DNA from: Candidatus Woesearchaeota archaeon
GTDB lineage: Archaea > Nanobdellota > Nanobdellia > Pacearchaeales > GW2011-AR1
Length of the DNA: 42,696 nt
Assembly: GCA_964624735.1 (NCBI GenBank)
Contig: CAZUXN010000003.1
Coordinates: 1 to 42,696 of the forward strand
Direction of reading: 5' to 3'
Below, piece after piece: positions 2,503 to 36,986 of the stretch (the stretch's first letter is position 1; each line of letters begins with the position of its first letter). The position numbers and the translations under genes were made by a program. Below the pieces are notes generated by a model. It did no database searches and had not been told where the DNA came from. It saw only the letters and a program-made list of their open reading frames with translations.

Positions 2503-3206
2503 GAAGTTCTAAGAAGAAATTTTTATTGTTTCTTATTTTTGTGGTTGTTTCGGTTGTCGTCTGTATTTTGTCCGGATATTTTGGATTGAATTCTTCTTCG
2601 ATAGATTTATTTGTTTCGTTAAATTCTTTTTTTGCGGGGTTTTTGTATTCGCTGGTGTTTATTGTGCTTGCTTCGTTTTCGTTTTCGGTGAGTGTTATGA
2701 CGGGATTGGGTGCGCTGATTTTTCCCCTTCCGGAGCTTGTGGTTTATGCGATGGTTGGAATTCTTGGTAGTTCTGTTGTTGATTTTTATATTGCAAGAAA
2801 ACTTGGGAGAGATTATGTGCAGAAGTATCTTAAGCGACGAGGTGATAGTTTAGAAAAATTTGACGAGGTCGTTGAGAAAAGTCCTTTCAAGACAATTTTT
2901 ATTTTGAGCACGATATTTTTTGTTCCGCCGACGGTTCCAAATTTTCTTGGGGGAATCATGAAAATTAATTTGAGAGATTATTCTTTCGCTACTTTTTTGG
3001 GGAATCTCCCAAATACTTTTTTTACAGTTTATTTAATTAATGGAATAATTTATTCAAATTATTTTCAAATATATTTTTCGATTGTTTGCCTGGTTGTTGT
3101 AACTGCTGTTGCTTTGTTTTTTTATCGAGGGGAAATTGGAGAAATTTTGAGAATTAGTTTCCCGAGAATTTTTGGACGGTTGAGAAATTCAAGTAGTTTG
3201 GTTTAA
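2499..3206 (+). CDS. TVP38/TMEM64 (DedA-related) family membrane protein
   Basis: Multi-TM protein carrying the family-typical FFVPPTVPNFLGGIMKINLRDYSFATFLGNLP segment. Confidence 0.7.
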   Translation: MRSSKKKFLLFLIFVVVSVVVCILSGYFGLNSSSIDLFVSLNSFFAGFLYSLVFIVLASFSFSVSVMTGLGALIFPLPELVVYAMVGILGSSVVDFYIARKLGRDYVQKYLKRRGDSLEKFDEVVEKSPFKTIFILSTIFFVPPTVPNFLGGIMKINLRDYSFATFLGNLPNTFFTVYLINGIIYSNYFQIYFSIVCLVVVTAVALFFYRGEIGEILRISFPRIFGRLRNSSSLV

Positions 3207-3270
3207 ATTTGAATTTTGTTTGTAGATTTTAAGTCCACATTGTTTAAAAATGGGAAATTTATAAAAGAAT

Positions 3271-3981
3271 ATGGAGCCCGTGATTGTTCTTGATGATGTT
3301 TGGAAAAGATACGATATGGGTAAAGCTGGTGGGTTGACAGTTTTAAAGGAAATTGATTTGAAGGTTGAGCGAGGAGAATTTGTCGCTGTTGTTGGTCCGA
3401 GTGGAAGCGGGAAAAGCACGATGGTGAATATGATTGGTGCTCTTGATATTCCTTCTTATGGAACGATTTATCTTGATGAGAAAGATATAGGGAAAATGAA
3501 AGAGTCGTCTTTGGTGAAATTACGAAGTAAGAAAGTTGGATTTATTTTTCAGCAATTTAATTTAATACATACTTTGAGTGCACTCCAGAATGTAATGCTC
3601 CCAATGGAAATTGTTGATACTTCTGAGAAAATTGCGAGAGATAGGGCGACGAAGCTTTTGGTGAAGTTAGGTTTAGGGAACCGTCTTAATCATAAACCGA
3701 ATGAATTATCTGGTGGGCAACAACAAAGAGTTGCGATTGCTCGGAGCTTAGCGAATGACCCTGAAGTTATTCTTGCTGACGAGCCGACTGGAAATCTTGA
3801 TAGCAAGACTGGGAAGTTTGTGATGGATTTTCTTGGGAAATTAAATGGCGAGGGGAAAACTGTTGTGATTGTTACTCATGATTTAAATTTGGTTCAGTAT
3901 GCCAAGAGAGTTATTTATGTGATGGATGGAAGGATTGAGAAAAGTATTAAAAGTAAAGAAACCCATAGGGGGAAGAGATGA
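3271..3981 (+). CDS. ABC transporter ATP-binding protein (MacB/LolD-type)
   Basis: Walker [10 protein letters not shown], signature [15 protein letters not shown], Walker [14 protein letters not shown]-loop VTHD. Confidence 0.95.
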
Positions 3982-6289: not shown

Positions 6290-7117
6290 ATGTCTAAGAT
6301 AAAGTTTGGTCCGACGGGGATTGGGTCGGTTGGGGAGGCGGTTGCGAATTTGGAGATGTATGCTAAGTTAGGGTTTCGGGTGGCGGAGGTTTTGTTTACT
6401 TATGGGGTTTATATTAAAGAGAGGGAGGATGCTTTGAGGATTGGGCGGGTCGCGAAGAAGTTGGGGATTTATCTTTCTGTTCATGCGCCGTATTGGATTA
6501 ATTTGAATTCGAAGGACGAGAAGAAAGTTGAGATGTCGAAGAAGAGGATTTTGAAATGTTGCGAAGTCGCGTCGTGGCTTGGGGCGAAGCGAGTTGTTTT
6601 TCATCCTGGATACTATACTTCGATTTCTTCGAAGTTGAAGTCGCCTGTCGCTGGTCGCCTGTCGCTGGTCGCTGGAGAAAGTTATCAGAAAATTAAAGAG
6701 GGTATAGTTGAGATGATGGAGGTTATTAAGAAAGAGAAGTGGGATGTTGAGTTGTGTCCGGAGGTTATGGGGAAGGTGAATGTTTTTGGATCGATTGATG
6801 AGGTTGGTCGGTTGGTTCGCGAGACTGGGTGTTCTGCTTGTATTGATGTTGCTCATGTTTTGGCGAGGTATGGTTCTTATAAATTTTCTGAGATTGAGAA
6901 GGTGTTTAAGATGGAGAATTGGCATGTGCATTTTTCTGGGATTGAGTTTGGCGAGAAGGGTGAAAAGAAGCATTTGGTGACGCCTTTGTCTGAGTGGAAG
7001 AAGGTGTTGGGGTTTTTGAAGAAGTTGGATAAAGATGTTGTTTTGATTTGTGAAAGCCCCGACGCTGTTTCTGATAGCGTTGTTGGGATGAGAGTTTGGG
7101 ATGAGATGAATGCTTGA
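6290..7117 (+). CDS. nfo: endonuclease IV-like AP endonuclease (xylose-isomerase-like TIM barrel)
   Basis: HAPYWINLNS, RVVFHPGYY, CPEVMGK, CIDVAHV and WHVHFSGIEFGEKGEKKHLV follow the Endo IV metal-ligand block order. Carries an in-frame repeat insert. Confidence 0.7.
   Translation: MSKIKFGPTGIGSVGEAVANLEMYAKLGFRVAEVLFTYGVYIKEREDALRIGRVAKKLGIYLSVHAPYWINLNSKDEKKVEMSKKRILKCCEVASWLGAKRVVFHPGYYTSISSKLKSPVAGRLSLVAGESYQKIKEGIVEMMEVIKKEKWDVELCPEVMGKVNVFGSIDEVGRLVRETGCSACIDVAHVLARYGSYKFSEIEKVFKMENWHVHFSGIEFGEKGEKKHLVTPLSEWKKVLGFLKKLDKDVVLICESPDAVSDSVVGMRVWDEMNA
6617..6674 (+). repeat. hairpin ACTTCGA-N5-TCGAAGT (6617-6635) followed by a 5x 7-nt array GTCGCCT/GTCGCTG (6640-6674), in-frame in the nfo-like gene
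   Basis: Read directly from the sequence. It encodes ..TSISSKLKSPVAGRLSLVAGES.. directly after the conserved FHPGYY block. Confidence 0.9.
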
Positions 7118-12844: not shown

Positions 12845-12879
12845 TTAGGTATTAGGCTTTAGGTATTAGGTGTTAGGAA
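12845..12879 (+). repeat. intergenic 5x 7-nt array TTAGGTA/TTAGGCT/TTAGGTA/TTAGGTG/TTAGGAA
   Basis: Read directly. It starts 4 nt beyond the SMC start codon, in the divergent SMC/Nudix intergenic region. Confidence 0.9.
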
Positions 12880-14892: not shown

Positions 14893-16686
14893 ATGAGATT
14901 GGCGATTGTTCATAAGGAGAAATGTAAACCGGCAGGATGTGGGCGTGAGTGCAAGAAGTATTGTCCGGTTGAGAAAAAGGAGTTGGATAGTTGCGTGCGT
15001 GTGCGCACGAGTGGGTCGCCGGTCGCCAGTCGCCGGTCGCAGGAAGGGGGGAAAGAAGAAGAGAGTTGGGATGGGGCGAGGATTGATGAGAAGAATTGTG
15101 TTGGGTGTGCGATTTGTGTGAAGCGGTGTCCGTTTGGGGCGATTGATATTGTGAATTTGCCATCGGTGAGCGAAGGTGATTTGGTTTATCGTTATGGCGA
15201 GAATGGGTTTGCTTTGTATGGGTTGCCTATTCCTAAATCTGGGAAGGTTTTGGGATTGTTGGGTCGGAATGGGATTGGGAAGTCGACTGCTATTGAGATT
15301 TTGGCTGGGAAGATTGATGTTGATGTTTCGAAGTTTAAGAGGGGTGAATTGCAGAAATTTTTTTCAAAAATTTTAGCCAGTCGCCAGTCGCTAGTCGCCA
15401 GTCGGGTTAGTTATAAGCCGCAGAATTTGTCGGGGTTGTCGAAGGATGTCGGAGTTATGGAGTTACTGAAACAGAGAGGGAGCGAGGTGGAGATTAAGAT
15501 GTTGGCGAAGAGGTTGAATGTTGAGAATGTTCTTTCTAATAAGATGAATAAGTTGTCGGGTGGGGAGTTGCAGAGGGTTGCGATTTTGGCGGCTTCGCTT
15601 GGTAATGCTGATATTTATTTTTTCGATGAGCCGTTGGCGTTTTTGGATATTAGTGAGAGGCTTCGTGTTAGTGATTTTATTAAGGAGATTGGAAAAGATA
15701 GGACGGTGATTGTTGTTGAGCATGATTTGTTGGTTCTGGATTATTTGACGGATTATTTGAATGTGTTTTATGGGGGACAGGGGGCGTTTGGGATGGTGTC
15801 GGGGATTAAGAGTTCTAAGGAGGGTGTTAATGCTTATTTGAGGGGGTTTTTGAAAGAAGAGAATTTGAGAATTAGGGACAAGGCGTTGAGTTTTAATTTT
15901 ACGAAAAATGTTGCGGTGTTGGGAAAGAAGATTGCGGAGTGGCCTGATTTTAGTTTGAGTTTTGATAGTGGTTTTGAGTTGAGTGTTAGTGGCGGAGAGA
16001 TTAGAGAGAATCATGTGATTGGGATTTTGGGGAAGAATGGGACGGGGAAAACGTCATTCATTCGAGCTCTTGTGGGAGAACTTGAAGTTCGCAAGTCGCA
16101 AGTCGCAAGTCGCAAGTCGCGATTTGATTTGGGGTTGGATGTTAGTTATAAGTCACAGTATTTGTTTAGTGAGAGCGAGGAGTTTGTTCGGGATATTATT
16201 TTTAAAGAGAAGATAAATAAGAAATTGTCGTCGGTGTTTAATCTTGGGGTTTTGGTTGGAAAGAAATTGAAGGAGTTGTCGGGTGGTGAGTTGCAGAGAT
16301 TTAGTGTTGCGAGGTGCTTGGCGAAAGATGCAGATGTTTATTTTTTCGATGAGCCGTCGGCTTATCTGGATGTTGAGGAAAGGATTGTTGTTGCAAAGGT
16401 GATTAAGGATATTATGATAGAGAAGGAAAAGACTGCGTTTGTTGTTGACCATGATTTGCTTCTTGTTTCTTATTTGGCTGATTCGATTATTAATTTTTCG
16501 GGCGAGTCCGGAGTTTATGGAGAGGCGAGCGGGATTAGGAATTTTGAGGATGGAGTTGGCGAGTTGTTGAAGAGTTTGGATGTTACGTTGAGGAAAGATA
16601 GGGAGAGTGGGCGTCCTCGGATTAACAAGAGATGGTCGGTGCTTGATAGGGAGCAGAAGGCGAAAGGGAAGTGGGCGGTGTTTTAA
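14893..16686 (+). CDS. abce1: ABCE1 / RNase L inhibitor-type ribosome-recycling ATPase
   Basis: N-terminal Fe-S Cys clusters CKPAGCGRECKKYCP and CVGCAICVKRCP. Two NBDs with Walker A GRNGIGKST and GKNGTGKTS, and signature LSGGELQR twice. Contains three in-frame repeat inserts. Confidence 0.95.
   Translation: MRLAIVHKEKCKPAGCGRECKKYCPVEKKELDSCVRVRTSGSPVASRRSQEGGKEEESWDGARIDEKNCVGCAICVKRCPFGAIDIVNLPSVSEGDLVYRYGENGFALYGLPIPKSGKVLGLLGRNGIGKSTAIEILAGKIDVDVSKFKRGELQKFFSKILASRQSLVASRVSYKPQNLSGLSKDVGVMELLKQRGSEVEIKMLAKRLNVENVLSNKMNKLSGGELQRVAILAASLGNADIYFFDEPLAFLDISERLRVSDFIKEIGKDRTVIVVEHDLLVLDYLTDYLNVFYGGQGAFGMVSGIKSSKEGVNAYLRGFLKEENLRIRDKALSFNFTKNVAVLGKKIAEWPDFSLSFDSGFELSVSGGEIRENHVIGILGKNGTGKTSFIRALVGELEVRKSQVASRKSRFDLGLDVSYKSQYLFSESEEFVRDIIFKEKINKKLSSVFNLGVLVGKKLKELSGGELQRFSVARCLAKDADVYFFDEPSAYLDVEERIVVAKVIKDIMIEKEKTAFVVDHDLLLVSYLADSIINFSGESGVYGEASGIRNFEDGVGELLKSLDVTLRKDRESGRPRINKRWSVLDREQKAKGKWAVF
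14994..15042 (+). repeat. hairpin CGTGCG-TGTG-CGCACG (14994-15009) followed by a 4x 7-nt array GTCGCCG/GTCGCCA/GTCGCCG/GTCGCAG (15015-15042)
   Basis: Read directly. It encodes ..CVRVRTSGSPVASRRSQ.. between the two Fe-S Cys clusters of ABCE1. Confidence 0.9.
15376..15405 (+). repeat. ~4x 7-nt array GCCAGTC/GCCAGTC/GCTAGTC/GCCAGTC in ABCE1 NBD1
   Basis: Encodes ASRQSLVASR immediately before VSYKPQ. An AT-only 8-bp hairpin (15355-15373) lies just upstream but is probably native sequence. Confidence 0.9.
16078..16120 (+). repeat. palindrome GAACTT-G-AAGTTC (16078-16090) running into a 4x AAGTCGC array (16093-16120) in ABCE1 NBD2
   Basis: Encodes GELEVRKSQVASRKSR, a few codons before VSYKSQ. This is the loop equivalent to the NBD1 array site. 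Confidence 0.9.
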
Positions 16687-16994: not shown

Positions 16995-18647
16995 ATGAGG
17001 GAGATTATTGTTAATTTGATTTCGAAGGAAGTCGGGGAGGATGTTTCTAATTTAGTTGAGGTTCCGCCGAAAGAGGAGATGGGGGATTTTGCGTTTCCGT
17101 GTTTTGAGTTGGCGAAGAAGATGAGTAAGTCGCCTGTTGTTATCGCTGAGGATTTTGTTGGGAAGTTTCGGAAGAAGTTGCCCAAGGGTGTTGAGCGGGT
17201 TGATGCAAAAGGGGCTTATGTGAATTTTTTTGTTGATAATAAGATTTTGGCGGAGAGGGTATTTGCCGAGAAGAAGAGGGCTGTGAAGAAGAGAGGGAAG
17301 ATTGTGATTGATATGTCGTCGCCGAATATTGCGAAGCCGTTTGGGATTGGGCATTTGAGGTCGACGATTATCGGGAATTCGATTGGGAAGATTTGCGAGG
17401 CGAATGGGTTTGAAGTTACGAAAATTAATTATCTTGGAGATTGGGGGACGCAGTTTGGGAAGGTTATTTTTGGGTTTAAGAAATGGGGGAGCGAGGTGAA
17501 GTTGAAGAAGAATTCTATCGAGCATTTGTATGAGTTGTATGTTCGGGCTAGTGAGGAGGAGTTTGAGGATGAGACTCGTGAGGAATTTAGGAAGTTGGAG
17601 AGTGGTGACTCTGATAATGTTAAGTTATGGAAGAAGTTTAGGAAGTTGTCGTTGGAAGAGTTTGATGAGATTTATGATTTGCTTGGGGTTAAGTTTGATG
17701 TTGTTAGTGGAGAGAGTTTTTATAATGGAAAGATGGATGGTGTTGTCGAAGAATTAAGGAAGAGGAAATTATTGAAGAAGGATGATGGGGCGGAGATTGT
17801 TGATTTGGAGAGAGATGGGCTTGGGGTTGTGTTAATTCAGAAATCTGATGGGACTTCGCTTTATGTGACGAGGGATTTGGCTGCTGCGATTGATAGGAAA
17901 AAGAAATATAGATTTAATAGGATGATTTATGAGGTTGGGAATGAGCAGGTTTTGCATTTTAAGCAGTTGTTTCGGATTCTTGATAAGATGGGGTATAAAT
18001 GGGCGAAGGATTGTGTTCATGTTGCACATGGTTTGTATTTGGGTGGGGATGGGAAGAAGTTTGCGACGAGGAAGGGGAAGAGTGTTTTTATGAGGGATGT
18101 TTTGAGAGAAGTTATTGAGAAGGCGAGGCTTCGCTTGTCGGGAGTCGGAAGTCGGAAGTCGGAAGTCGGAAAGCTGGAGTTGGATTTGAGGGCGAGGAAG
18201 ATTGCGTTGGCGGCGATTTTTTATGGGGATTTGAAGAATTCACGGGAGAGTAATATGGTTTTTGATGTTGATAGGTTTTTGAGTTTTGAGGGGGACACGG
18301 GGCCATATTTATTGTATTCGTATGCGAGGGCTGCTTCGCTTTTGAGAAAGCGAAGGGGTCGTGGGTCGTGGGTCGTGGGTCGTGGGTTTAATGTTAGTGA
18401 GGTTCGGCTGTTGAAGAAGATTGATTCTTTTAGAGATGTTGTCGTGAGGGCTTATGAGAATTTGGCGCCGAATTTTGTTGCGAATTATTGTTTTGAGTTG
18501 GCGACGTTGTTTAATGAGTTCTATCATTCGTGTCCTGTGATTGGTTCAAATGAAGAAGGATTTAGGTTGAAGTTGGTTAAGAAGTTTAAGGAAGTTTTGG
18601 GAGAGGGGTTGGGTTTGTTGGGGATTGAGACTTTGGAGAGTATGTGA
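16995..18647 (+). CDS. argS: arginine--tRNA ligase
   Basis: SSPNIAKPFGIGHLRSTIIGN (HIGH-equivalent region), GDWGTQFG, SDGTSLYVTRDLAA, and a C-terminal DALR-type anticodon-binding domain. The start is at Met19 of the ORF, 23 nt after a TATA-like ATTAATAA. Carries two repeat inserts. Confidence 0.92.
   Translation: MREIIVNLISKEVGEDVSNLVEVPPKEEMGDFAFPCFELAKKMSKSPVVIAEDFVGKFRKKLPKGVERVDAKGAYVNFFVDNKILAERVFAEKKRAVKKRGKIVIDMSSPNIAKPFGIGHLRSTIIGNSIGKICEANGFEVTKINYLGDWGTQFGKVIFGFKKWGSEVKLKKNSIEHLYELYVRASEEEFEDETREEFRKLESGDSDNVKLWKKFRKLSLEEFDEIYDLLGVKFDVVSGESFYNGKMDGVVEELRKRKLLKKDDGAEIVDLERDGLGVVLIQKSDGTSLYVTRDLAAAIDRKKKYRFNRMIYEVGNEQVLHFKQLFRILDKMGYKWAKDCVHVAHGLYLGGDGKKFATRKGKSVFMRDVLREVIEKARLRLSGVGSRKSEVGKLELDLRARKIALAAIFYGDLKNSRESNMVFDVDRFLSFEGDTGPYLLYSYARAASLLRKRRGRGSWVVGRGFNVSEVRLLKKIDSFRDVVVRAYENLAPNFVANYCFELATLFNEFYHSCPVIGSNEEGFRLKLVKKFKEVLGEGLGLLGIETLESM
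18137..18171 (+). repeat. 5x 7-nt array GTCGGGA + 4x GTCGGAA in argS
   Basis: Encodes SGVGSRKSEVGK. 18143-18171 is identical over 29 nt to 40185-40213 in the pilus platform gene. Confidence 0.92.
18334..18385 (+). repeat. hairpin CTTCGCT-N8-AGCGAAG (18334-18355) followed by 4x GTCGTGG (18358-18385) in argS
   Basis: Encodes ..LLRKRRGRGSWVVGRG.. after the conserved YSYARAASLLRK segment. Confidence 0.9.
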
Positions 18648-19537: not shown

Positions 19538-22441
19538 TTATATTTTGTTGAATTTTATAATGAAGGATTTATTTTTTATTTTTCCCTCTTCTAAGTGACT
19601 AAACTTTTTATTTGATTCATCAAATGAGATTGTTTTTGCCCCAACCCTTTTTTGGATGAAGTTGAGTTGTGATTTTATTTTGTCATTGAATTCTGATATT
19701 ATTTCAAGTTCGATTGAATCGGATCTTGAGAGATTTGCCTTTTTTCTTGTTGCCTGAATTTTTCTTGATATTTCTCTTGCGAAGCCTTCGGATTCGAGTT
19801 CGGGGGTGATGTTTGTATCGAGTTTGATTCCCCAATCTTTTTCGTGAGCTTCTTTATATTCTATTTTTTTTATGTTTAGTTCTTCTTTTATAATTTGGTG
19901 TAATTCTTTGCTGAAGTTTTTGTAGTATTTTATTGTTGCTTTGGCGAGTGGCCATTTGATTCCGATTTGGACTTTGTCTCTTTCTCTTAGTCCTTGTGAA
20001 ACTGCCCATTTTATTTGTTCCATTTCTTGTTCGAGTTTTTTGTTGATTAATTTTTGGTTTGCTTTTGGGTAATCTTGAAGGTGGATTGATTTTTTCTTGC
20101 CGTTCATGTCTTGGTATATTTTTTCTGTTACGAATGGGATTATTGGTGCGAGGATTTTTGTTAGTTTTTCAAGGACATATCTTAATGTTTTTCTTGCGGA
20201 TTCGTCATTGGTGTTAAATCTGTCTCGCGAGTTTCTGATGTACCAAGTTGATAGGTTGTCTATGTATTTTTTTATGGATTCGCAGGCTTTTATCGTGTTG
20301 TATTCTTCGAGGGTTTTTTGGATTGTTGCATTTAGAATTTCGGTTTTTGAGATTATCCATTTGTCCATTATATGTTGGCTTGTGGCTTGTGGCTTGTCGC
20401 TTGTCGCTTGGTAGTCTTGGTAGAAGTTTGAGATGTTGTATAGCAGGACTGTGACTTGTTTGTATGTTTCTTGGAGACCTTTTTCTGAGAAGTTGAAATT
20501 TTCGGCGTTCATAACTGGTGATTGGAGCAGGTAAAATCTCAAGGTGTCTGCTCCATATTTGTCTATGACCTTGAGTGGGTCTGGATAGTTTTTTAGTGAT
20601 TTTGACATTTTTTGTCCGTTTTCTGCGAGGATTGTTCCGGTTGTTAGGACGTTTTCAAATGGGATTTTGTCGAAGAGGATTGCTGATAATGTCATCATAT
20701 AATAAAACCACGCTCTGGTTTGTGCGATGTATTCTGATACGAATTGTGCTGGGAAGTGTTTGTTGAAATATTCTTTGTTTTCAAATGGATAATGGAATTG
20801 GGCGAAGGTCATTGCCCCTGATTCGAACCAGCAGTCTAAGACTTCCGGGATTCTTTCATAGGTTTCATTTTCTATTTTTAGTTTTATGTTGTCTAATGTG
20901 TCTTTGTGTAGGTCGACAATCGGCAAAGCCGATTGTGTTTTTGGTTTTTGGTTTTTGGTTTTTGGTGAGCTGTCGATAAGCTCTTCTAATTCTTTTATTG
21001 AACCTACGACTTTTATTTTTCCTGATTTTGATTTCCAGATTGGGATTGCTGTCGCCCAGTATCTGTTTCGCGTGATGTTCCAGTCTGGTGCAGTTGAGAT
21101 GTTGTGTTGCATTCGACCTTCTTTGAGATGTTTTGGGAACCAATTGATTTTGAGGTTTAATTTTAGGAGTTTGTTTTTGATTTTTTGGATGTCGACGAAC
21201 CATGCTGGTAGGGCTCTGTATATTAGTTTTGTGTCACATCTATAGCAGAAAGGGTATTCGTGTTCCATTTTTTTTATTGCGATTGCTTTGCTGGATTTTT
21301 TTAGGTCGATTGCGATTTGTTCATTTGCGTCGTGGACGAATTGTCCTTTATAATCGCTTACTTCTTTTGTAAATTTTCCGTTTTCGTCGACGGGTTGGAC
21401 TATAGGGATGTTGTATTTTTTGCAGATGGCGTTGTCGTCTTCTCCGAATGCCGGTGCTGTGTGAACTATTCCGGTTCCGTCTTCGGCTGTTACGAAGTCG
21501 TCTAGTAAAAATTGGAAAGAGTTTGGGTTGTTTTTGAAGTAGGGGAATATGGGTTCGTATTTTTTGCCTTCGAGTTTTTTGCCTTTTATTTCTTCTGTGA
21601 TTGTGTATTCATCTTTGGATTTATAGAATTTTGGAATTAGTTTTTTTGCGAGGAGATATGTGTTTCCGTCGTCTTTGTCTTTGATGTATGCGTATGTTAG
21701 TTTTGGGTTGACTGTTAGTGCAAGGTTACTCGGGAGAGTCCATGGGGTTGTTGTCCATGCCAAAGCAAAAACTTCGTTTTTGCTTTCGGTGTTCGGTGTT
21801 CGGTGTGTCGGTGTGTCGGAGAGTTTGAATTTCACGACGATGGTCGTGTCTTTTATAATTTTGTAAGAATTGTCCATTGCGATTTCGGATTTTGATAATG
21901 GGGTCGAACATCGTGGACAGTAGAGCAGGATTTTTTCGCCTTCGTATAGGTATCCTTTTTCGTAGAGTTGTTTGAATGCCCACCAGACTGATTCGATGTA
22001 GTTTGTGTCCATTGTTTTGTAGCCGTCTTTGAAATCTACCCATCTTCCGATTTTGTCGATGTATTTTTCCCAGTCGTTGGCGTAGGTCAAAACTTTTGAG
22101 CGGCAGAAATCGTTGAATTTTTTGATGCCTATCTTCTCAATTTCGTCTTTGGAGTTTATGCCGAGTTCTTTTTCTGCGATGTTTTCGATTGGTAGTCCGT
22201 GGCAGTCCCAGCCCCAGTTTCGTTTGACGTATCTGCCTTGCATTGTGAAGAATCTTGGGAAGACGTCTTTTAGCGTCGAGGCTAATAAATGTCCGTAGTG
22301 TGGTAGTCCGGTTGCGAATGGTGGGCCGTCGTAGAAGATGTAGGGTTTTCCTTTTTCTGTTTGCTTTAATGATTTTTCAAATGTCTTGTCTTTCTTCCAG
22401 AATTTTAGGATTTCGTTTTCTGTTTCGGAGATGGATGTCAT
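19538..22441 (-). CDS. ileS: isoleucine--tRNA ligase
   Basis: HIGH motif PHYGHLL, editing-domain signature WTTTPWTLPSN, and KMSKS (GQKMSKSLKNY). Carries three repeat inserts. Confidence 0.95.
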   Translation of the reverse strand: MTSISETENEILKFWKKDKTFEKSLKQTEKGKPYIFYDGPPFATGLPHYGHLLASTLKDVFPRFFTMQGRYVKRNWGWDCHGLPIENIAEKELGINSKDEIEKIGIKKFNDFCRSKVLTYANDWEKYIDKIGRWVDFKDGYKTMDTNYIESVWWAFKQLYEKGYLYEGEKILLYCPRCSTPLSKSEIAMDNSYKIIKDTTIVVKFKLSDTPTHRTPNTESKNEVFALAWTTTPWTLPSNLALTVNPKLTYAYIKDKDDGNTYLLAKKLIPKFYKSKDEYTITEEIKGKKLEGKKYEPIFPYFKNNPNSFQFLLDDFVTAEDGTGIVHTAPAFGEDDNAICKKYNIPIVQPVDENGKFTKEVSDYKGQFVHDANEQIAIDLKKSSKAIAIKKMEHEYPFCYRCDTKLIYRALPAWFVDIQKIKNKLLKLNLKINWFPKHLKEGRMQHNISTAPDWNITRNRYWATAIPIWKSKSGKIKVVGSIKELEELIDSSPKTKNQKPKTQSALPIVDLHKDTLDNIKLKIENETYERIPEVLDCWFESGAMTFAQFHYPFENKEYFNKHFPAQFVSEYIAQTRAWFYYMMTLSAILFDKIPFENVLTTGTILAENGQKMSKSLKNYPDPLKVIDKYGADTLRFYLLQSPVMNAENFNFSEKGLQETYKQVTVLLYNISNFYQDYQATSDKPQATSQHIMDKWIISKTEILNATIQKTLEEYNTIKACESIKKYIDNLSTWYIRNSRDRFNTNDESARKTLRYVLEKLTKILAPIIPFVTEKIYQDMNGKKKSIHLQDYPKANQKLINKKLEQEMEQIKWAVSQGLRERDKVQIGIKWPLAKATIKYYKNFSKELHQIIKEELNIKKIEYKEAHEKDWGIKLDTNITPELESEGFAREISRKIQATRKKANLSRSDSIELEIISEFNDKIKSQLNFIQKRVGAKTISFDESNKKFSHLEEGKIKNKSFIIKFNKI
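20374..20409 (+). repeat. 5x 7-nt array (GTTGGCT)TGTGGCT/TGTGGCT/TGTCGCT/TGTCGCT in ileS (gene on the minus strand)
   Basis: Read on the + strand. It encodes QATSDKPQATSQ on the minus strand. Confidence 0.9.
20916..20964 (+). repeat. hairpin ACAATCGGC-AAA-GCCGATTGT (20916-20936) abutting 4x GTTTTTG (20937-20964) in ileS
   Basis: Perfect 9-bp stem. Together the hairpin and array encode SSPKTKNQKPKTQSALPIV just N-terminal of the DLHKD block. Confidence 0.9.
21762..21819 (+). repeat. hairpin AAAGCAAAAAC-TTC-GTTTTTGCTTT (21762-21786) running into a 7/8-nt array TGTTCGG x2 and TGTGTCGG x2 (to 21819) in ileS
   Basis: Perfect 11-bp stem. The low-coordinate arm encodes VFAL of VFALAWTTTPWT (native), and the other arm encodes ESKN. 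The array encodes TPTHRTPNT. Confidence 0.9.
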
Positions 22442-23057: not shown

Positions 23058-23905
23058 TGTTTATTATAGTTGAATATCTTTAAATATTCTTCTTCTAAGA
23101 AGTGAAGCTCGGTTGGGACGATTAGGCAGAATGGTATCCTTATTTGCTGTTCGTTGTCCGCTGTTCGCTTGTCGCTTGCGAGATTTTCTGGGGTATCGTA
23201 GAATATTTTTTGGTTGCTGGTTCCGGCGTTTGATATTGCTATGATTTTTTTTGGGAGGTTTGCCTTTGATTCGCTTAGTTGGTTGATTGCTTTTTTGATT
23301 TCGAGTCCGATGTCGGTTAGGATTAGGGTGTGGGCTTGGATTGATTGGTTTTGTTTGATAACGTCGGCGAAGGATTTTGGTTTGTTAGTGTGTTCTTTCC
23401 AATTTGGCATTGAGGTTGTTTTTCCGAATTTGTAGAGGGATAGGCCGGTTTCTGCGACGGTGGTTAGGATTGATGCGTTGTGGAAGATTTTGTATGGGAT
23501 GTTTTGTTTTTTGGCGGCGAGGATTAGTTGGATGTGTGTTGTTGCAGAGAGGGCGTCGCCGTAAACTAAGAGGGATACCACTTTCGTGGAAGCTTCTTTT
23601 ATTATTTGTTCGTTTTCTACGGCTTCTCTTGAAAGTGGTCGCAGGTCGCAGGTCACAGGTCGCAGGTCGCGGTTTATTGTTTTTTCTAGGTCTTCGATTT
23701 TGTAGGGGAAGTTGACGGTGTAATTTTCGAGATAGATTTTGTCGCAGGTTTTGAGGACATTGATGGCTTCGTCCGTTAGAGAGTTTGCGTTCATGCCAAG
23801 GCCTATCAAAAAAAGGAAACCTTTTTTTGATACTGGTCGCTGGGCCGCTCGGTACACCCCTTTTATTGGGGCGTCGCAGGTCGCTGGTTGCTTGTTTTGT
23901 TTCAT
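23054..23905 (-). CDS. dph5: diphthine synthase
   Basis: FLFLIGLGM.., LLVYGDALSATTH and NASILTTVAETGLSLYKFGKTTS are Dph5 methylase blocks. It has a ~29-aa N-terminal extension and two internal inserts made of 7-nt arrays. Confidence 0.85.
   Translation of the reverse strand: MKQNKQPATCDAPIKGVYRAAQRPVSKKGFLFLIGLGMNANSLTDEAINVLKTCDKIYLENYTVNFPYKIEDLEKTINRDLRPVTCDLRPLSREAVENEQIIKEASTKVVSLLVYGDALSATTHIQLILAAKKQNIPYKIFHNASILTTVAETGLSLYKFGKTTSMPNWKEHTNKPKSFADVIKQNQSIQAHTLILTDIGLEIKKAINQLSESKANLPKKIIAISNAGTSNQKIFYDTPENLASDKRTADNEQQIRIPFCLIVPTELHFLEEEYLKIFNYNKQ
23146..23180 (+). repeat. 5x 7-nt array GCTGTTC/GTTGTCC/GCTGTTC/GCTTGTC/GCTTGCG in dph5
   Basis: Encodes ASDKRTADNEQQ near the C-terminus (gene on the minus strand). 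Confidence 0.85.
23638..23672 (+). repeat. 5x 7-nt array GTCGCAG/GTCGCAG/GTCACAG/GTCGCAG/GTCGCGG in dph5
   Basis: Encodes RDLRPVTCDLRPL. It has the same + strand unit type as the ABCE1 arrays although the gene is on the opposite strand. Confidence 0.92.
23873..23893 (+). repeat. 3x 7-nt array GTCGCAG/GTCGCTG/GTTGCTT in the dph5 N-terminal extension
   Basis: Encodes KQPATCD. Preceded by the imperfect hairpin ACACCCC-N7-GGGGCGT (23854-23874). Confidence 0.8.
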
Positions 23906-23929: not shown

Positions 23930-24172
23930 TTAAGCTTTGTGCCAGATTAAGGTTGTGATGAATGTGAATGTTAGGGTTAGGGCGATTGTCGACTTTGTAG
24001 CTGTTAGCTGGTAGCTGTTAGCTGGTAGAATTAGTATTGTTATTATTGTGATTGATAGGAGGCAGAGGATGACTGGGAAGTATTTGGTGTAGATTTGTTT
24101 TTCGTCTTTTGTTGTTTTTGCGAGGATGATGCCGATGGGGATTGCTAAGATTAGAGTTAAGTATTCTATCAT
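23930..24172 (-). CDS. small 3-TM membrane ORF, about one third built from tandem repeats
   Basis: 80 aa. The C-terminal half (PANSYQLTATKSTIALTLTFTF) is encoded by the repeats at 23959-24028. Whether it is a real gene is uncertain. Confidence 0.4.
   Translation of the reverse strand: MIEYLTLILAIPIGIILAKTTKDEKQIYTKYFPVILCLLSITIITILILPANSYQLTATKSTIALTLTFTFITTLIWHKA
23959..24028 (+). repeat. hexamers TGAATG x2 and TTAGGG x2 (23959-23982) plus 7-nt array GTAGCTG/TTAGCTG x2 with a partial fifth unit GTAG (23997-24028)
   Basis: Read directly from the sequence. Confidence 0.9.
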
Positions 24173-24355: not shown

Positions 24356-25216
24356 ATGAAACTTGTTGATGTGCATGCGCATTTGGAACATTCGAGGTTT
24401 GAGAAGGATTTGGATGAGGTTGTTGATAGGTTTGTCGAGGCTGGCGGGGAGTTGGTTGTTACTAGTGGGGTTAATCCTGAGACGAATCGGAAGGCCTTGG
24501 AGTTGGCTGGAAAATATGATTGTGTTCGGGTTTCGTTTGGGCTTTATCCGATTGATGCTTTAGCTAAGGAGGTTGAGGCGTCGAGTGATTTTTTGAGGGA
24601 GATAAAAAATTTTGATGTTGATGAGGAGTTGGGATGGATTGAGGAGCACAAGGATGATTGTGTTGCGATTGGTGAGGTTGGGTTGGATTATTCGGACGAA
24701 GTTTCGTCCGAAGGTGTCAGGTGTCAGGATTCAGGTGTCAGAATGAGGGAAAAACAGAAGGAGGTTTTTCGGAAGGTGTTGAGGTTGGCGAAGAGGATAG
24801 ATAAGTGTGTGGTTGTTCATTCGAGGAAGGCGGAGGGGGATGCGGTTGAGATTTTGGAGGAGGAGTCCCGGTTAGATAGCGAGCATCAAACGGGACAAGG
24901 GAGATTGAAGGTTGTGATGCATTGTTTTAATGGGCGGAAGAGTTTGATTAAGAGGGGTGTTGAGAATGGGTGGTTTTTTTCGGTACCTCCTGTGATTGTT
25001 AGACTTGAGCATTTTAAGATGTTGGTTTCTCTTGTTCCGCTTGGGCAACTTTTGACTGAGACTGATGCGCCGTATTTGTCTCCGGTTGTTGGGGAGAGGA
25101 ATGAGCCGGCTAATGTTTTTGTGACGTTGAAGGAGATTGCTCGGATTAAAGGTTTGAGTGTTGAGGAGGTTTCTTCTGTGGTGTTTGAGAATTTTGAGAG
25201 GGTGTTTGGGGGTTGA
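24356..25216 (+). CDS. tatD: TatD-family metal-dependent hydrolase/DNase
   Basis: DVHAHL, GEVGLDY, VVHSRKA, HCFNG and ETDAPYL are the TatD metal-ligand blocks. Confidence 0.88.
   Translation: MKLVDVHAHLEHSRFEKDLDEVVDRFVEAGGELVVTSGVNPETNRKALELAGKYDCVRVSFGLYPIDALAKEVEASSDFLREIKNFDVDEELGWIEEHKDDCVAIGEVGLDYSDEVSSEGVRCQDSGVRMREKQKEVFRKVLRLAKRIDKCVVVHSRKAEGDAVEILEEESRLDSEHQTGQGRLKVVMHCFNGRKSLIKRGVENGWFFSVPPVIVRLEHFKMLVSLVPLGQLLTETDAPYLSPVVGERNEPANVFVTLKEIARIKGLSVEEVSSVVFENFERVFGG
24691..24741 (+). repeat. hairpin TTCGGACGAA-GT-TTCGTCCGAA (24691-24712) followed by 4x 7-nt array GTGTCAG/GTGTCAG/GATTCAG/GTGTCAG (24714-24741) in tatD
   Basis: Perfect 10-bp arms starting right after the GLDY codons. 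Encodes SDEVSSEGVRCQDSGVR. Confidence 0.92.
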
Positions 25217-28362: not shown

Positions 28363-29328
28363 TTATTTTTTGTTGATTGGTTTTTTAATGTTTGGCCATT
28401 TGTCGGTGAGGGTTGGTTCGTTGGATTGGTAGATTATTCCGAGTGGGATTTTGCCGGATTTGGAGTTGTAGTCGAATTCATCGGCGAGTTTTTCTGCGGT
28501 TTGTTTGTCTTTGTTATCTTTTATTTTGTACATTAGTTTGTCTTTGTTGTTGGCGTCGAGGTTGAAGATGAGGCAGTCTTGGATGACTTCGACGAATGAG
28601 AATCCGTTGTGGGCGATTGCTTTTGAGAATGTTTCGACCATGTGCGGGATGTCGCGGGCGTTTGTTCTTGCGATGAATGTTGCGTTTGATGCTAATGCTA
28701 GTTTGATTGGGTTGAATGGTTTGTCTTTGACGCCGAGGGGATTTGCTTTTGAGATGTATCCTTGTTGGGAGGTTGGGGTTGGTTGGCCGGTTGTTAGAGA
28801 GAAGGATTGGTTGTCGTGGAGGATTAGGGTCATGTCGGGGTTGTATTTGAAGGCGTGGATGAAGTGGGCGATTCCTTCGGAGTAGACTCCGCCGTCGCCG
28901 GCGAATGTTATGACTTTGAGGTTCGGGTTTGCGAGCGTTATTCCAATTGCTGTCGGTATTGCGCGGCCGTGGAGGCAGTAGATTCCGGAGAGGTTTAGGT
29001 AGTCGAAGATTTTTGCATGACATCCTATATCTGTCGTCATGCAAAAATCTAGTTCGCTTCGCTGTGAGTTCGCTTCGCTGTGAGTGTCGGCTTTGCCGAC
29101 GAGTTTGCTTTGACTTTGTCGAAGCTGTGAGTTCGACTTGTTAGGATTTGATATTAGGTTTGTTATGGTTTGTTTGACTGCTTCTAATATCATGTGATTT
29201 GGGCAGCCGGGGCACCAGGTCAACTCCGAGGGAGTTGACAGACTGGCTTTGTCTGTCAGACCTCTTCGCTGTGAGACCTCTTCGCTGTGAGACCTCTTCG
29301 TTGTCAGATTGGCTGTTTTTGGGTTCAT
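28363..29328 (-). CDS. korB: 2-oxoacid:ferredoxin oxidoreductase beta subunit
   Basis: WCPGCPNH, DIGCHAK and the TPP motif GDGGVYSEG..HDNQSFSLTTGQ. It has an N-terminal extension and an internal insert, both built from hairpins and 16-nt repeats. Confidence 0.9.
   Translation of the reverse strand: MNPKTANLTTKRSHSEEVSQRRGLTDKASLSTPSELTWCPGCPNHMILEAVKQTITNLISNPNKSNSQLRQSQSKLVGKADTHSEANSQRSELDFCMTTDIGCHAKIFDYLNLSGIYCLHGRAIPTAIGITLANPNLKVITFAGDGGVYSEGIAHFIHAFKYNPDMTLILHDNQSFSLTTGQPTPTSQQGYISKANPLGVKDKPFNPIKLALASNATFIARTNARDIPHMVETFSKAIAHNGFSFVEVIQDCLIFNLDANNKDKLMYKIKDNKDKQTAEKLADEFDYNSKSGKIPLGIIYQSNEPTLTDKWPNIKKPINKK
29007..29137 (+). repeat. 15-bp perfect fold-back (29007-29021 / 29036-29050), 2x 16-mer AGTTCGCTTCGCTGTG (29051-29082), hairpins GTCGGC-TTT-GCCGAC (29086-29100) and GTCGAA-N8-TTCGAC (29118-29137)
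   Basis: Read directly, inside korB. The low-coordinate arm encodes CHAKI of the conserved DIGCHAKIF block. Confidence 0.92.
29219..29318 (+). repeat. hairpins GTCAACTCC-GAG-GGAGTTGAC (29219-29239) and GACAGAC-N7-GTCTGTC (29237-29257), then ~4x 16-mer GTSAGACCTCTTCGCT (29255-29318)
   Basis: Read directly. It forms the first ~36 codons of korB, upstream of WCPGC. Confidence 0.92.
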
Positions 29329-29795: not shown

Positions 29796-31339
29796 ATTAT
29801 TTCTTTGATTAGTTCGTTTAGTTCGTCGGAGTGGAAGGGGCGGCCGTTGTATTTTAGGAGTCGGTTTTTGATTTTGATTCCGGTTTTTTCTCTGATTAAT
29901 CTGCCGAGTTGTCCGGTGACGTTACATTCTACTAGGATTACTTTGTTTGCGGCTTCGAGTTCTTCTTTAATTTTTGGGGAGAGCGGTTTGCAGTAGAGGA
30001 CTTGGAGGAATTTGGCGTCGAGGTTTTTGATTGCGTCTTTGATTGCGCCGGATGTTGAGCCCCAGCCGATGATTAAGTTTTTTGAGTTTTTGTTGCCGTG
30101 GATTTTTATCATTTCGAAATTTTTCTGGATGTATTTTTTTATGTTTTTGTATTTTTCGACTCGTTTGTTTGCGTTGTCTTCGGTGATTGTGTATGATTCT
30201 GTTGTGTTGCCGAGTTTGTCTGTTTCGTAGGATGATGCTTTGATGATTGATTGTCCCGGGAGTTTTCTTGTAATTTGGATTTTTGTGGTTGGTTTAGGTT
30301 TTGCCGTTGAGGAAAACTCGGATTCGGCGAGGTGTTTGTCCGAGAGGATTATTGAGAGTGTTTGGAATTTTTCGGCGAGGAATAATGCTTCGGAAGTTTT
30401 TTCGATTGTTTCGGTTGGGTTGCTTGGAGCGACGACGATTCGTGGGAATTCGCCGTGTCCTGCTCGGAGTGCGATGTCGAGATCGGCTTGTGCGGTATAA
30501 GTTGGGACTCCCGTCGCTGGTCCGGGTCTTGAGGCTAGGTAGATTGTTAGTGGGATTCCAGATTGTCCTTGTAGGGATAATGTTTCTCCCATTAAATCGA
30601 AGCCGCCGCCTGATGTTCCGATTAGTGTTTTTGCTCCGGCGAATGATGCTCCGATTGCCATGCTACCGACGGCGATTTCATTTTCGGCTTGGAAGACTGT
30701 CATGTTAGCCGTTAGCTGTTGGCCGTTAGCTGTTGGCTTTTGGAGTTTGGCGAGTTCGTGCATTGCGTTTGTTGCTGGGGTCATTGGGTAGGCGATGTAT
30801 AAGTTTATTCCGGAGTTTATTGTTCCTATTGCTATTGCTTGATTTCCTGATAGGATTGTTGTTTTGTTATTTAATTTTTTTAATTGTTGTTTTGTTTCTT
30901 GTGAGTCGAATCCTTTTTTTGCTGAGATAATTGCTTTGTTTGATTCTTTGAATTGAGATTTGATTTCGTTGTTTAATTCTTCGAGAGGGATGCCGAGGAT
31001 TTTTATTAGTGAGCCGGCGAGTGCGATGTTTATATTTCGTCCTTCGTTTTTGAATTTGTCGGCGGTGATTATTATGCCGTCTTTTTTTAGAGCCTGTTTG
31101 TGGATTTTGATTGATTGTTTGTCGAGTGCGATAAGGATGTCTGTTTTTGATTCGTGGGATTCGATTGGTTTGTCGGATATTGTTAGGGCGTTGAAGTTGT
31201 GGCCGCCGCGGATTAAGGATTGATAGTCTCGGTAGTTGAAAGTGAAGTAGCCGTGTTTGGATAGGATGTTTGAGATTATTTGAGAGACTTTATTGATTCC
31301 CTGTCCTGCCTCGCCACCGATTAGGATTGTCAGTTTCAT
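29792..31339 (-). CDS. korA: 2-oxoacid:ferredoxin oxidoreductase alpha subunit (gamma-alpha fusion type)
   Basis: N-terminal gamma-like GGEAGQGINKVS..RGGHN, then the alpha domain GNQAIAIG..AYPMTPAT. Confidence 0.9.
   Translation of the reverse strand: MKLTILIGGEAGQGINKVSQIISNILSKHGYFTFNYRDYQSLIRGGHNFNALTISDKPIESHESKTDILIALDKQSIKIHKQALKKDGIIITADKFKNEGRNINIALAGSLIKILGIPLEELNNEIKSQFKESNKAIISAKKGFDSQETKQQLKKLNNKTTILSGNQAIAIGTINSGINLYIAYPMTPATNAMHELAKLQKPTANGQQLTANMTVFQAENEIAVGSMAIGASFAGAKTLIGTSGGGFDLMGETLSLQGQSGIPLTIYLASRPGPATGVPTYTAQADLDIALRAGHGEFPRIVVAPSNPTETIEKTSEALFLAEKFQTLSIILSDKHLAESEFSSTAKPKPTTKIQITRKLPGQSIIKASSYETDKLGNTTESYTITEDNANKRVEKYKNIKKYIQKNFEMIKIHGNKNSKNLIIGWGSTSGAIKDAIKNLDAKFLQVLYCKPLSPKIKEELEAANKVILVECNVTGQLGRLIREKTGIKIKNRLLKYNGRPFHSDELNELIKEII
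30704..30738 (+). repeat. 5x 7-nt array GTTAGCC/GTTAGCT/GTTGGCC/GTTAGCT/GTTGGCT in korA
   Basis: Encodes KPTANGQQLTAN (gene on the minus strand). Confidence 0.9.
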
Positions 31340-34933: not shown

Positions 34934-35189
34934 GTAGGCAGGTCGGCGAGTTAGCCCCTCGCTATTCGCAAACGGGCTTTATGGCGGACTGCAAGGCAAG
35001 GCGTGAGATGAAGCTTTCGATGTTGTCGGTTTGACGTTGAGGTTTTGTCCTTTTTGATCTTGCCTTGATGAAGTGGGTCAGGTCGGGAACGAAGCAGCCC
35101 TAAGTTAAGGTTTGGGTGCTTAAAGGGTCGCAGAGCTGAGAAGAATTGATAACCTCTCGGTTGTGGATTTGAGCAACTTGCTGGCCTAC
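34934..35189 (+). ncRNA. signal recognition particle (7S) RNA
   Basis: Helix-8 signature GGGTCAGGTCGGGAACGAAGCAGCCC at 35075-35100. The 5' GTAGGC pairs with the 3' GCCTAC (35184-35189). The ends are approximate. Confidence 0.75.
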
Positions 35190-35214
35190 TTGAAAATCGG
35201 AGATTTTCAAGTGG

Positions 35215-35249
35215 AGTTGGGTAGTGGGGGTTGGGTTGTAGGGTTGGGT
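35215..35249 (+). repeat. intergenic G-rich 5x 7-nt array AGTTGGG/TAGTGGG/GGTTGGG/TTGTAGG/GTTGGGT
   Basis: Read directly. Five G3+ runs with 2-5-nt spacers give G-quadruplex potential. It ends 4 nt before the pilin-operon TATA box. Confidence 0.85.
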
Positions 35250-35252
35250 AAT

Positions 35253-36859: not shown

Positions 36860-36870
36860 ATGGTGGTTAT

Positions 36871-36972
36871 GAAAGTAACTTTAGAAAAGTTCCAATCGCA
36901 AAATATTCAAAGAAATTTTGTGAAAGTAACTTTAGAAAAGTTCCAATCGCAAAATATTCAAAGAAATTTTGT
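36871..36972 (+). repeat. perfect 2x 51-bp tandem duplication upstream of the pilin gene at 36987
   Basis: GAAAGTAACTTTAGAAAAGTTCCAATCGCAAAATATTCAAAGAAATTTTGT occurs at 36871-36921 and 36922-36972, followed by a partial GAAAG. Each unit has the inverted repeats AACTTT-AGA-AAAGTT and CAAAAT-N10-ATTTTG. Confidence 0.95.
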
Positions 36973-36986
36973 GAAAGGGGGTCGAT

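Follow-up and report, generated by a model that had tools for sequence, protein, structure and literature searches.

The stretch of DNA analysed here (the window; 42,696 nucleotides (nt) of contig CAZUXN010000003.1 from a Candidatus Woesearchaeota archaeon) contains at positions 14893-16686 of its forward strand an open reading frame (ORF) of 597 amino acids (aa) that is, judged by sequence and structural model, an intact ABCE1 (RLI), predicted by homology to split ribosomes. Three short arrays of a 7-nt unit lie within the gene, each beside a perfect inverted repeat. With phmmer, full-length matches were obtained to 3bk7, 3j15 and 6tmf (E 1e-119 to 1e-131), with an E value of 8e-131 for the Pyrococcus abyssi ABCE1 (3j15/3bk7), and Pfam assigns Fer4_RLI, Fer4 and two ABC_tran domains to the protein. 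The iron-sulphur (Fe-S) domain has its two 4-Cys motifs (C11/16/20/24 and C69/72/75/79), and in an alignment with 56 relatives these eight cysteines and the catalytic motifs are all present and invariant. Both Walker A motifs, both Q-loops and both LSGGELQR signatures are kept, and the features expected of the two nucleotide-binding domains (NBDs), namely Walker A, Q-loop, signature, Walker B, the helix-loop-helix (HLH) of NBD1 and the hinge, were all found. An AlphaFold2 model of the protein (mean predicted local distance difference test score (pLDDT) 78.9, predicted template modelling score 0.77), in which helices 145-148 and 152-165 form the HLH, is matched by Foldseek to ribosome-bound ABCE1 structures with a template modelling score of 0.85. 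The closest ABCE1 relatives are metagenomic Pacearchaeota, Woesearchaeota and Nanoarchaeota (DPANN).

Anatomy of the ABCE1 arrays

The arrays were located with Tandem Repeats Finder, which recovered all three where the original prediction had placed them, and the lengths of the inserts were obtained by codon-level comparison to array-free orthologs. The inverted repeats at 14994-15009 and 16078-16090 had also been recognised correctly; hairpin 2 was absent from that account. In the lists below the arms and loop of each hairpin are separated by full stops.

14994-15009, forward strand: hairpin 1, CGTGCG.TGTG.CGCACG (stem 6, loop 4), with the 5' arm overlapping the conserved Cys34-Val codons
15014-15040, forward strand: array 1, GGTCGCC x3.9, peptide GSPVASRRSQ (residues 41-50)
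15355-15373, forward strand: hairpin 2, AAATTTTT.TTC.AAAAATTT (stem 8, loop 3), with the 5' arm covering the Q-K-F-F codons
15376-15404, forward strand: array 2, GCCAGTC x4.1, peptide ASRQSLVASR (residues 162-171)
16078-16090, forward strand: palindrome 3, GAACTT.G.AAGTTC, overlapping the G-E-L-E codons that end the Walker A helix of NBD2
16089-16120, forward strand: array 3, TCGCAAG x4.6 with 100% matches, peptide VRKSQVASRKSR (residues 399-410)

In the Fe-S domain, array 1 lies between the 4-Cys motifs as part of a 21-aa insert (residues 38-58, nt 15004-15066) that lengthens the linker between the cysteine clusters, as had been proposed, by a net 63 nt relative to array-free orthologs. The peptide of array 2 directly precedes V172-S-Y-K-P-Q of NBD1, in which the strand VSYK leads into the Q-loop, and array 3 follows the Walker A helix of NBD2, six residues ahead of V417-S-Y-K-S-Q; the placing of both arrays relative to these motifs thus agrees with the original prediction. 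Site 2 measures 42 nt in the window and 21 nt in orthologs (DSLDGKK), and at site 3 the window has 'ELEVRKSQVASRKSRFDL' where orthologs have 'ELETSDGKLDL', a gain of 21 nt. Compared with array-free orthologs such as L072, L002 and L001 (handles of this kind denote relatives), arrays 2 and 3 each add 21 nt (7 aa) and are insertions, as claimed, not part of the normal ABCE1 sequence. They share the core AGTCGC, in keeping with one unit family. Native ABCE1 codons are partly overwritten by the arrays and not only displaced. As 7 is not a multiple of 3, an array is read in three frames and gives a peptide with a period of 7 aa. From shuffles the sequence GTCGCNNGTCGC would be expected 0.00 times, and the window contains it 16 times.

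In the model the pLDDT falls below 50 at residues 43-56 and 166-168, and 10-residue blocks over the three arrays average 45, 54 and 64, low confidence being only a proxy for disorder. The lowest values in the protein are found at the three arrays and at the linker between the NBDs. DNA folding was run on six modules, and in each the centroid structure contains the hairpin, those in the genes of the arginyl- and isoleucyl-tRNA synthetases (ArgRS and IleRS) having fold z-scores of -3.5 to -4.8. Two of the stems in ABCE1 are perfected by substitutions in coding positions. In the arm of hairpin 2, Phe156 replaces the Tyr of at least 90% of relatives (TAT to TTT), and in the arm of hairpin 1 the codon of Cys34 has changed from TGT to TGC, contrary to the C-depleting bias.

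Hairpin-heptamer modules in strongly GC-skewed genomes

The arrays are not a peculiarity of ABCE1, a point that the original prediction had missed. About 15 arrays of period 7 (or 14), with spans of 27-40 nt, were located in the window by Tandem Repeats Finder, and at a strict threshold there are 8 arrays of period 7 and none of periods 4-6 or 8-12. Only one of the 15 is intergenic, the other fourteen being in ORFs of either strand; every array examined inside an ORF leaves the frame open. When eight array-bearing ORFs were scanned against Pfam a family match was obtained for seven, namely an AP-endonuclease-2 TIM barrel, ArgRS (2 arrays), IleRS (3 arrays), a TP_methylase, TatD, POR and a T2SSF protein, and none for the 80-aa minus-strand ORF at 23930-24172. 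The module is a short perfect hairpin followed by 4-5 copies of a 7-nt unit, on the G-rich strand.

A perfect inverted repeat lies 5' of the array on the forward strand in 8 of the 15 cases, whatever the orientation of the gene. These hairpins have stems of 6-11 bp and loops of 1-5 nt and end between 2 nt inside and 4 nt before the start of the array; as background, a hairpin with a stem of at least 6 is found in 5.5% of random 47-nt windows. In a wider survey the hairpin was upstream in 10 of 21 arrays and downstream in 0 of 21. The polarity is kept inside the minus-strand IleRS gene, both in the window (modules 20916-20966 and 21762-21819) and in the IleRS array of L069 and L070. Hairpin polarity therefore tracks the DNA strand, not the gene. 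Perfect hairpins with stems of at least 8 number 12 in the window, against 2.8 expected under a first-order Markov model, and five of these directly precede a 7-nt array; the sequences downstream of the hairpins at 29236 and 35188 coincide with arrays of 16-nt and 13-nt units.

This polarity makes it highly improbable that the hairpin and repeat act together at the RNA level, through protein binding, pausing or stability of the mRNA. In favour of such an element, the stems have no mismatches and are in some cases kept so by substitutions at conserved codons; against it, the sequences are not conserved between sites, no Rfam family matches at the arrays and, because polarity follows the DNA strand, the mRNA of a minus-strand gene carries the complement of the module in reverse order.

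As a control, 124 GTCG-phase heptamer arrays from unrelated bacteria, among the matches listed, were inspected in the same way. A hairpin was upstream in 11 and downstream in 15, which for these arrays, among the matches listed, is the background level and shows no polarity. The bacterial heptamer arrays among the matches listed also ranged in length from 32 to 113 nt, whereas those here cluster at 27-35 nt. GTCG-phase arrays of at least five units occur, among the matches listed (L152-L271), in bacteria such as Acidobacteria, Streptomyces, Xanthomonas, Bacteroidota and Moorena. The suggestion that GTCG heptamer arrays are confined to DPANN was rejected on the diversity of bacteria among the matches listed.

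Over the entire 42.7 kb of the window, where the GC content is 0.39, GC skew ranges from +0.14 to +0.61; the forward strand has 27.6% G and 11.5% C, and AT skew is negative. The positive GC skew persists through stretches of minus-strand genes. Extreme GC skew is common to close relatives and is not seen in the deeper relatives L011, L012, L014, L016 and L025. A set of 31 non-redundant loci, the window among them, with a GC skew of 0.25 or more (267 kb in total) contains 21 arrays of period 7 at the strict threshold, while periods 6, 8 and 10 give 1, 2 and 1 arrays in the same loci; in 22 weakly skewed relatives (175 kb) no strict period-7 array was found. The hairpin-heptamer module is restricted to strongly GC-skewed genomes of Pacearchaeota/Woesearchaeota.

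The other period-7 arrays and modules of the window are listed below, all given on the forward strand.

6617-6675, forward strand: module in an AP-endonuclease-2/TIM-barrel gene, hairpin ACTTCGA.TTTCT.TCGAAGT, then GTCGCCT/GTCGCTG x5
12845-12877, forward strand: TTAGGTA x4.7, the sole intergenic period-7 array
18137-18171, forward strand: ArgRS array, GTCGGAA x5, without hairpin; a degenerate array is at the same place in L001
18334-18387, forward strand: ArgRS module, hairpin CTTCGCTTT.TGAG.AAAGCGAAG, then GGGTCGT x4.6
20376-20410, forward strand: array in the minus-strand IleRS gene, TGGCTTG/TCGCTTG x5
20916-20966, forward strand: module in the minus-strand IleRS gene, hairpin ACAATCGGC.AAA.GCCGATTGT, then GTTTTTG x4.3; the hairpin is 5' on the forward strand and thus 3' in the sense of the gene
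21762-21819, forward strand: module in the minus-strand IleRS gene, hairpin with stem 11, AAAGCAAAAAC.TTC.GTTTTTGCTTT, then TTCGGTG x4.7
23637-23670, forward strand: array in the minus-strand TP_methylase gene, GGTCGCA x4.9
23997-24028, forward strand: array in the minus-strand 80-aa ORF, GTAGCTG/TTAGCTG x4.6
24691-24741, forward strand: module in a TatD gene, hairpin TTCGGACGAA.GT.TTCGTCCGAA, then AGGTGTC x4.3
30704-30743, forward strand: array in the minus-strand POR gene, GTTAGCC/GTTGGCC x5
40180-40214, forward strand: array in a T2SSF-family gene, TCGGAAG x5, perfect

About 15 native codons of ArgRS have given way to the array at 18356-18387, yet the net gain is only +3 nt, and in the ArgRS of L070 another array stands a few codons off (net +9 nt). 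The unit of the orthologous array, repeated x4.6 in both genomes, is GGGTCGT in the window and GGGCCGT in L001 (6231-6262), while that of L069 (9231-9262) has the T in its first unit only; the T/C difference across units could reflect homogenisation of the units or parallel C-to-T change under mutational bias. Over 7.7 kb that include several arrays L001 and L069 are 99.78% identical and differ by no indel, and the near-identical L149 and L150 likewise have no indels at the arrays (pairs 99.8-99.9%). It is scarcely credible that the arrays arose by misassembly or sequencing error in a metagenomic contig. The ABCE1 protein of the window is known from a single contig, but modules of the same kind stand at orthologous places in independent assemblies from different projects, the arrays of L001 (a metagenome-assembled genome at NCBI) and L069 (a metagenome contig from JGI) being identical, L149 matches L150, and the frames are open through every array.

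Some further repeats of the window have a similar layout or lie apart from the class. The longest perfect hairpin (23804-23832, stem 13, TATCAAAAAAAGG.AAA.CCTTTTTTTGATA), in the minus-strand TP_methylase gene, is followed by a degenerate CTGGTCG-like stretch. At 29219-29308, in the minus-strand ORF 28363-29328, two overlapping perfect hairpins (stems 9 and 8) precede a 16-nt array x3.5 (CTGTCAGACCTCTTCG), a hairpin-then-repeat layout with another period. An Rfam match to the signal recognition particle (SRP) RNA at 35046-35132 on the forward strand is followed by a hairpin with an 11-bp stem at 35188-35212 and a 13-nt array x2.6 at 35216-35250; the SRP RNA gene may thus extend over this module at 35188-35250. 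At 36870-36977 a 51-nt unit is repeated perfectly x2.1 (Tandem Repeats Finder score 216) between two small genes with hydrophobic N-termini that look pilin-like by eye only.

Recurrence at the three ABCE1 sites

Among the 120 closest ABCE1 cluster representatives inserts are found at all three sites, with site 1 lengthened in 25, site 2 in 7 and site 3 in 32; most have no insert at all. Five of the seven carriers of an insert at site 2 also have one at site 3. The heptamer units at each site are as follows.

Site 1: window GTCGCCG; L001 GACGACA; L005 GTNGCCG; L075 GTCGGTG; L149 GTCGGCA
Site 2: window AGTCGCC; L149 GGCAATA; L151 GTCGGGA
Site 3: window GCAAGTC; L001 GTGTCAG; L005 GCAGTCG; L082 AAATTAG; L149 GTGAGCA; L151 GTCGGTA; L018 TCGGAGT

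At site 3 of L070 the array is instead of a 10-mer, ACACGGACAA x3. Hairpins 5' of the arrays are seen in relatives also, for example CGATACC.TTCG.GGTATCG in L005 and CGTCAAC.TTT.GTTGACG in L082. In a neighbour-joining tree built from alignment columns occupied in at least 90% of the sequences, the array-bearing genes fall into three subclades interleaved with array-free genes of 562 or 573 aa; L073, for instance, has no insert while its sister L075 does. The peptides at any one site differ completely among lineages. The insert at site 1 has a non-repeat tail (QEGG...W-D/E-GA) that is common to the window and L001, and yet their heptamer units differ, so arrays also turn over within an inherited insert.

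Other kinds of insert use the same places. A palindromic element of about 54 nt (peptide G.ARGIPSK.GT.VPSSSG) is found in many relatives, at site 1, at site 3 or close to residue 266, as copies of a conserved sequence, GGCGCCGCACG.GGCATACCCTCT..GGGCAC....GTGCCATC.TCATCGGGC, inserted in frame. Copies are located in L081 (~3700-3760), L075 (~1450-1510) and L107 (~3150-3210), with degenerate ones in L007, L078, L079, L025 and L009, and P0064 carries the element at sites 1 and 3; it was not found in the window. From its sequence it looks like an in-frame mobile element in the style of the Rickettsia palindromic elements (RPEs). Some relatives have non-repeat inserts at site 2. Since different types of insert converge on the same sites, a filter of tolerance is favoured over the target choice of any one mechanism; of the two possibilities raised by the original prediction, a permissive loop is thus preferred to a preferred target. 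On these comparisons the three sites are recurrent permissive hot spots.

Two relatives required separate inspection. The ABCE1 gene of L107 (2037-3774) is disrupted at site 3, where the ~54-nt element replaces codons of the Walker A helix and shifts the frame, with a stop after 380 aa; this copy is either a pseudogene or a misassembly. In L005, where ABCE1 starts at 516, its first ~25 codons are partially duplicated ~120 nt further upstream (394-519). An apparent frameshift in this ABCE1 was rejected, the gene being intact behind the partial 5' duplicate.

Arrays 2 and 3 had been described as occupying structurally equivalent loops of NBD1 and NBD2, and this holds only approximately. When the profiles of the two domains were compared with hhalign, the strands VSYK(P/S)Q aligned with each other, as did the Walker A motifs, but the two sites were not paired. 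Array 3 comes opposite 'DVDVSKFKRG' at the start of the NBD1 HLH, and array 2 opposite a gap plus 'DL-GL', from the residues 'FDLGL' that immediately precede VSYK. Array 2 forms in the model the C-terminal turn of HLH helix 152-165 and the loop to strand 172-175, while array 3 follows the Walker A helix 386-394 as a weak beta-hairpin (398-401/408-410) six residues ahead of strand 417-420. The HLH is an insertion specific to NBD1 in otherwise superimposable NBDs (PMC7196836). Judged from the alignment and model, then, arrays 2 and 3 share the connector from Walker A to Q-loop but at its opposite ends, and NBD2 would lack the part in which array 2 lies. The position in NBD2 that corresponds exactly to site 2, immediately ahead of ISYKPQ, holds other inserts in L004, P0025, P0036 and P0093.

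The position of array 2 also bears on whether the arrays might be adaptive, either as phase-variable contingency loci or as selected loops that tune the contacts of ABCE1 with the ribosome. The HLH is linked to the Q-loop via beta8, and array 2 lies on this HLH-beta8-Q-loop path proposed for ribosome sensing; the contact to rRNA h5/h15 is made by the HLH loop and not by its C-terminal end (PMC7196836). Arrays persist at orthologous places in the window and L001, and a non-triplet unit inside ORFs is a hallmark of phase-variable simple sequence repeats (SSRs) such as those of Haemophilus influenzae (PMC2651432). Unlike those loci, the arrays here show no copy-number polymorphism, with 0 indels in L001/L069 and in L149/L150, are always in frame, and lie in essential housekeeping genes (ABCE1, ArgRS, IleRS) rather than surface or accessory ones. 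The array-bearing ORFs are open, and the sole disrupted ABCE1, that of L107, has the ~54-nt element and not an array. The complete difference of site peptides among lineages, the lack of an insert in most relatives and the low-confidence, apparently loop-like modelling of the inserts also argue against selected loops. An adaptive function is accordingly very unlikely, and phase variation was rejected at the consensus level, near-identical genome pairs having no indels at the arrays.

Origin of the modules

On balance, the ABCE1 arrays are probably ordinary members of a genome-wide, lineage-specific class of hairpin-heptamer inserts, produced by a strand-linked mutational process and surviving only in permissive loops. 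The process would be local reiterative DNA synthesis, slipped or template-switched, next to a hairpin while DNA is replicated or repaired, and the lineage would be one with extremely strand-asymmetric replication. Copying would be reiterated on the strand that carries the hairpin, and long-lived single-stranded DNA (ssDNA) would explain both the skew and the extrusion of hairpins. The product would in part overwrite and in part lengthen the native sequence, and only net in-frame, stop-free events would survive, in places where the protein tolerates extra residues. In ABCE1 these would be the Fe-S inter-motif linker and, in each NBD, the variable connector from Walker A to the Q-loop, and because such places are tolerant the same sites would repeatedly collect arrays and other inserts. 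The enzymatic mechanism and the causes of the 7-nt unit and of the RGTCGS preference we can only infer.

There is some precedent for synthesis of this kind. On ssDNA templates with a hairpin, slippage of archaeal PolB and PolD occurs in vitro (PMC4134008), and the polymerase of T. litoralis, according to the citation of Ogata & Miura 2000 in PMC13061963, elongates tandem repeats through a hairpin state. In these systems short units can be reiterated beside a hairpin, which matches the geometry of the modules; they are, however, in vitro systems that, as far as the T. litoralis work is represented in that citation, yield deletions or long repeats of palindromic units, and a 7-nt unit, 4-5 copies and a genome-wide footprint would not be predicted from them.

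Several observations weigh against the mutational process. Seven of the 15 window arrays have no adjacent hairpin, and the three ABCE1 hairpins are singly unremarkable in folding energy (z -0.7 to -1.8); the association of hairpin and array is significant only collectively. The stem-perfecting substitutions at conserved codons hint at selection or correction, of which a pure by-product would need none. None of the loci examined for polarity relative to replication direction contains a change of sign in the GC skew. The fixed 7-nt unit and the 4-5 copies are explained by no mechanism considered, and the net length changes are 3, 9, 21, 30, 39, 42, 45 and 63 nt. In addition, GTCG is found in 8 of the 15 window units against a background of 3.4%, which plain local slippage does not predict, and the array peptides are only slightly more hydrophilic than those of random stop-free units (P 0.12 for forward-strand genes, 0.39 for minus-strand genes).

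The short RGTCGS is the only core that recurs among the units. GTCG units account for 7 of 8 arrays in forward-strand genes and 1 of 6 in minus-strand genes, so an effect of the coding sense is possible. Three explanations of unit or copy number were tried. A filter on peptide hydrophilicity as the cause of the GTCG preference fell short of significance at the P values given above; derivation of the unit from the 3' arm of the hairpin or from native flanking codons is suggestive at site 3 (native GGCAAG) but not general; and slippage by '1 to 4 copies' as a general rule fits the +21 nt of ABCE1 sites 2 and 3 but fails for ArgRS (+3, +9) and for relatives (+30, +39, +45).

A serious rival, though we consider it unlikely, is targeted insertion, in which a structure-specific enzyme or small mobile element would recognise hairpin DNA on one strand and deposit or duplicate heptamers. 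Candidates would be an integrase that cuts with a 7-bp stagger or a transposase of the HUH or hairpin-recognising kind, and the ABCE1 sites would recur because their native sequence is hairpin-prone. The strictly one-sided polarity, which goes with the DNA strand whatever the gene, speaks for this rival, as does the preference for RGTCGS units at all three ABCE1 sites and in several lineages. The 'EVR...' and 'EVNE...' junctions at site 3 recur in non-sister lineages, and an apparently mobile element, that of ~54 nt, uses the same sites in relatives. The hairpin sequences, on the other hand, all differ and are largely native coding sequence, conserved element ends and flanking target duplications are absent, and the arrays often replace native codons and are not clean inserts. 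Insertion in steps of a single unit would also throw essential genes out of frame. In the window, in which no systematic ORF scan aimed at one was made, no gene for a transposase or integrase was noticed.

The mutational process also has to be set beside known repeats. Heptanucleotide SSRs are known from Xanthomonas and Nostoc (GGGNATC; PMC4692102) and from Beggiatoaceae (TAACTGA; PMC4679880), and three tandemly repetitive heptanucleotides are recorded for the cyanobacterium Calothrix in work cited in PMC4692102. These share with the arrays here a lineage-specific 7-nt tandem unit, scattered in large numbers, with copy numbers that cluster at ~4. They are, however, over-represented in intergenic and under-represented in coding sequence, whereas here 14 of 15 are genic and translated, with a strand-polar 5' hairpin. 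The Xanthomonas type forms G-quadruplexes, while the units here are mostly without G-tracts. A G-quadruplex reading was rejected, since the ABCE1 units GTCGCCR, AGTCGCY and AAGTCGC have no G3 tracts and only GGGTCGT of ArgRS does. The tandem repeats of Borgs (Schoelmerich et al, 2023; PMC9879509) are likewise independent, recent, perfect, within ORFs and absent from relatives, in an archaeal-associated genome, and create disordered peptide segments, where for the arrays here low pLDDT is a proxy only; in-ORF Borg units are all divisible by three (PMC9879509), in contrast to the 7-nt unit here that is read in three frames. The arrays here also differ from Borg repeats in being short (4-5 copies), in lying in chromosomal essential genes and in having a hairpin.

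RPEs are copies of a conserved sequence family of 100-150 nt and are tolerated at surface loops of proteins. Like RPEs and miniature inverted-repeat transposable elements (PMC10969869; PMC1779305), which are selfish or neutral DNA, the modules here have hairpin potential, insert in frame at tolerated sites of conserved genes and reuse homologous sites. Unlike RPEs they have no common sequence beyond the short core and consist partly of native codons, with hairpins and units that differ from locus to locus; the true RPE-like analogue is the ~54-nt element of the relatives. No description of hairpin-coupled, strand-polar heptamer arrays in essential archaeal genes was found in the open-access text searched.

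The repeated lengthening of ABCE1 at three places provides a natural map of its tolerance to insertion. The hairpin-heptamer module, one-sided, confined to skewed genomes and present in essential genes, would be the footprint of an unknown replication or repair behaviour in uncultured organisms. It is possible, though doubtful, that a DPANN clade with extreme strand asymmetry has a dedicated, strand-specific, hairpin-primed reiterative synthesis by its replication or repair machinery that writes 7-nt arrays, and with them 7-aa-periodic loops, into genes genome-wide, those of essential translation factors among them. If so, it would be a natural 'loop-insertion mutator', its products sieved by selection and its polarity marking the direction of replication. 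Should the polarity indeed track replication direction, the modules would offer a new replichore marker for DPANN genomes and would also supply proteins with new loops whose origin is mutation pressure and not selection.

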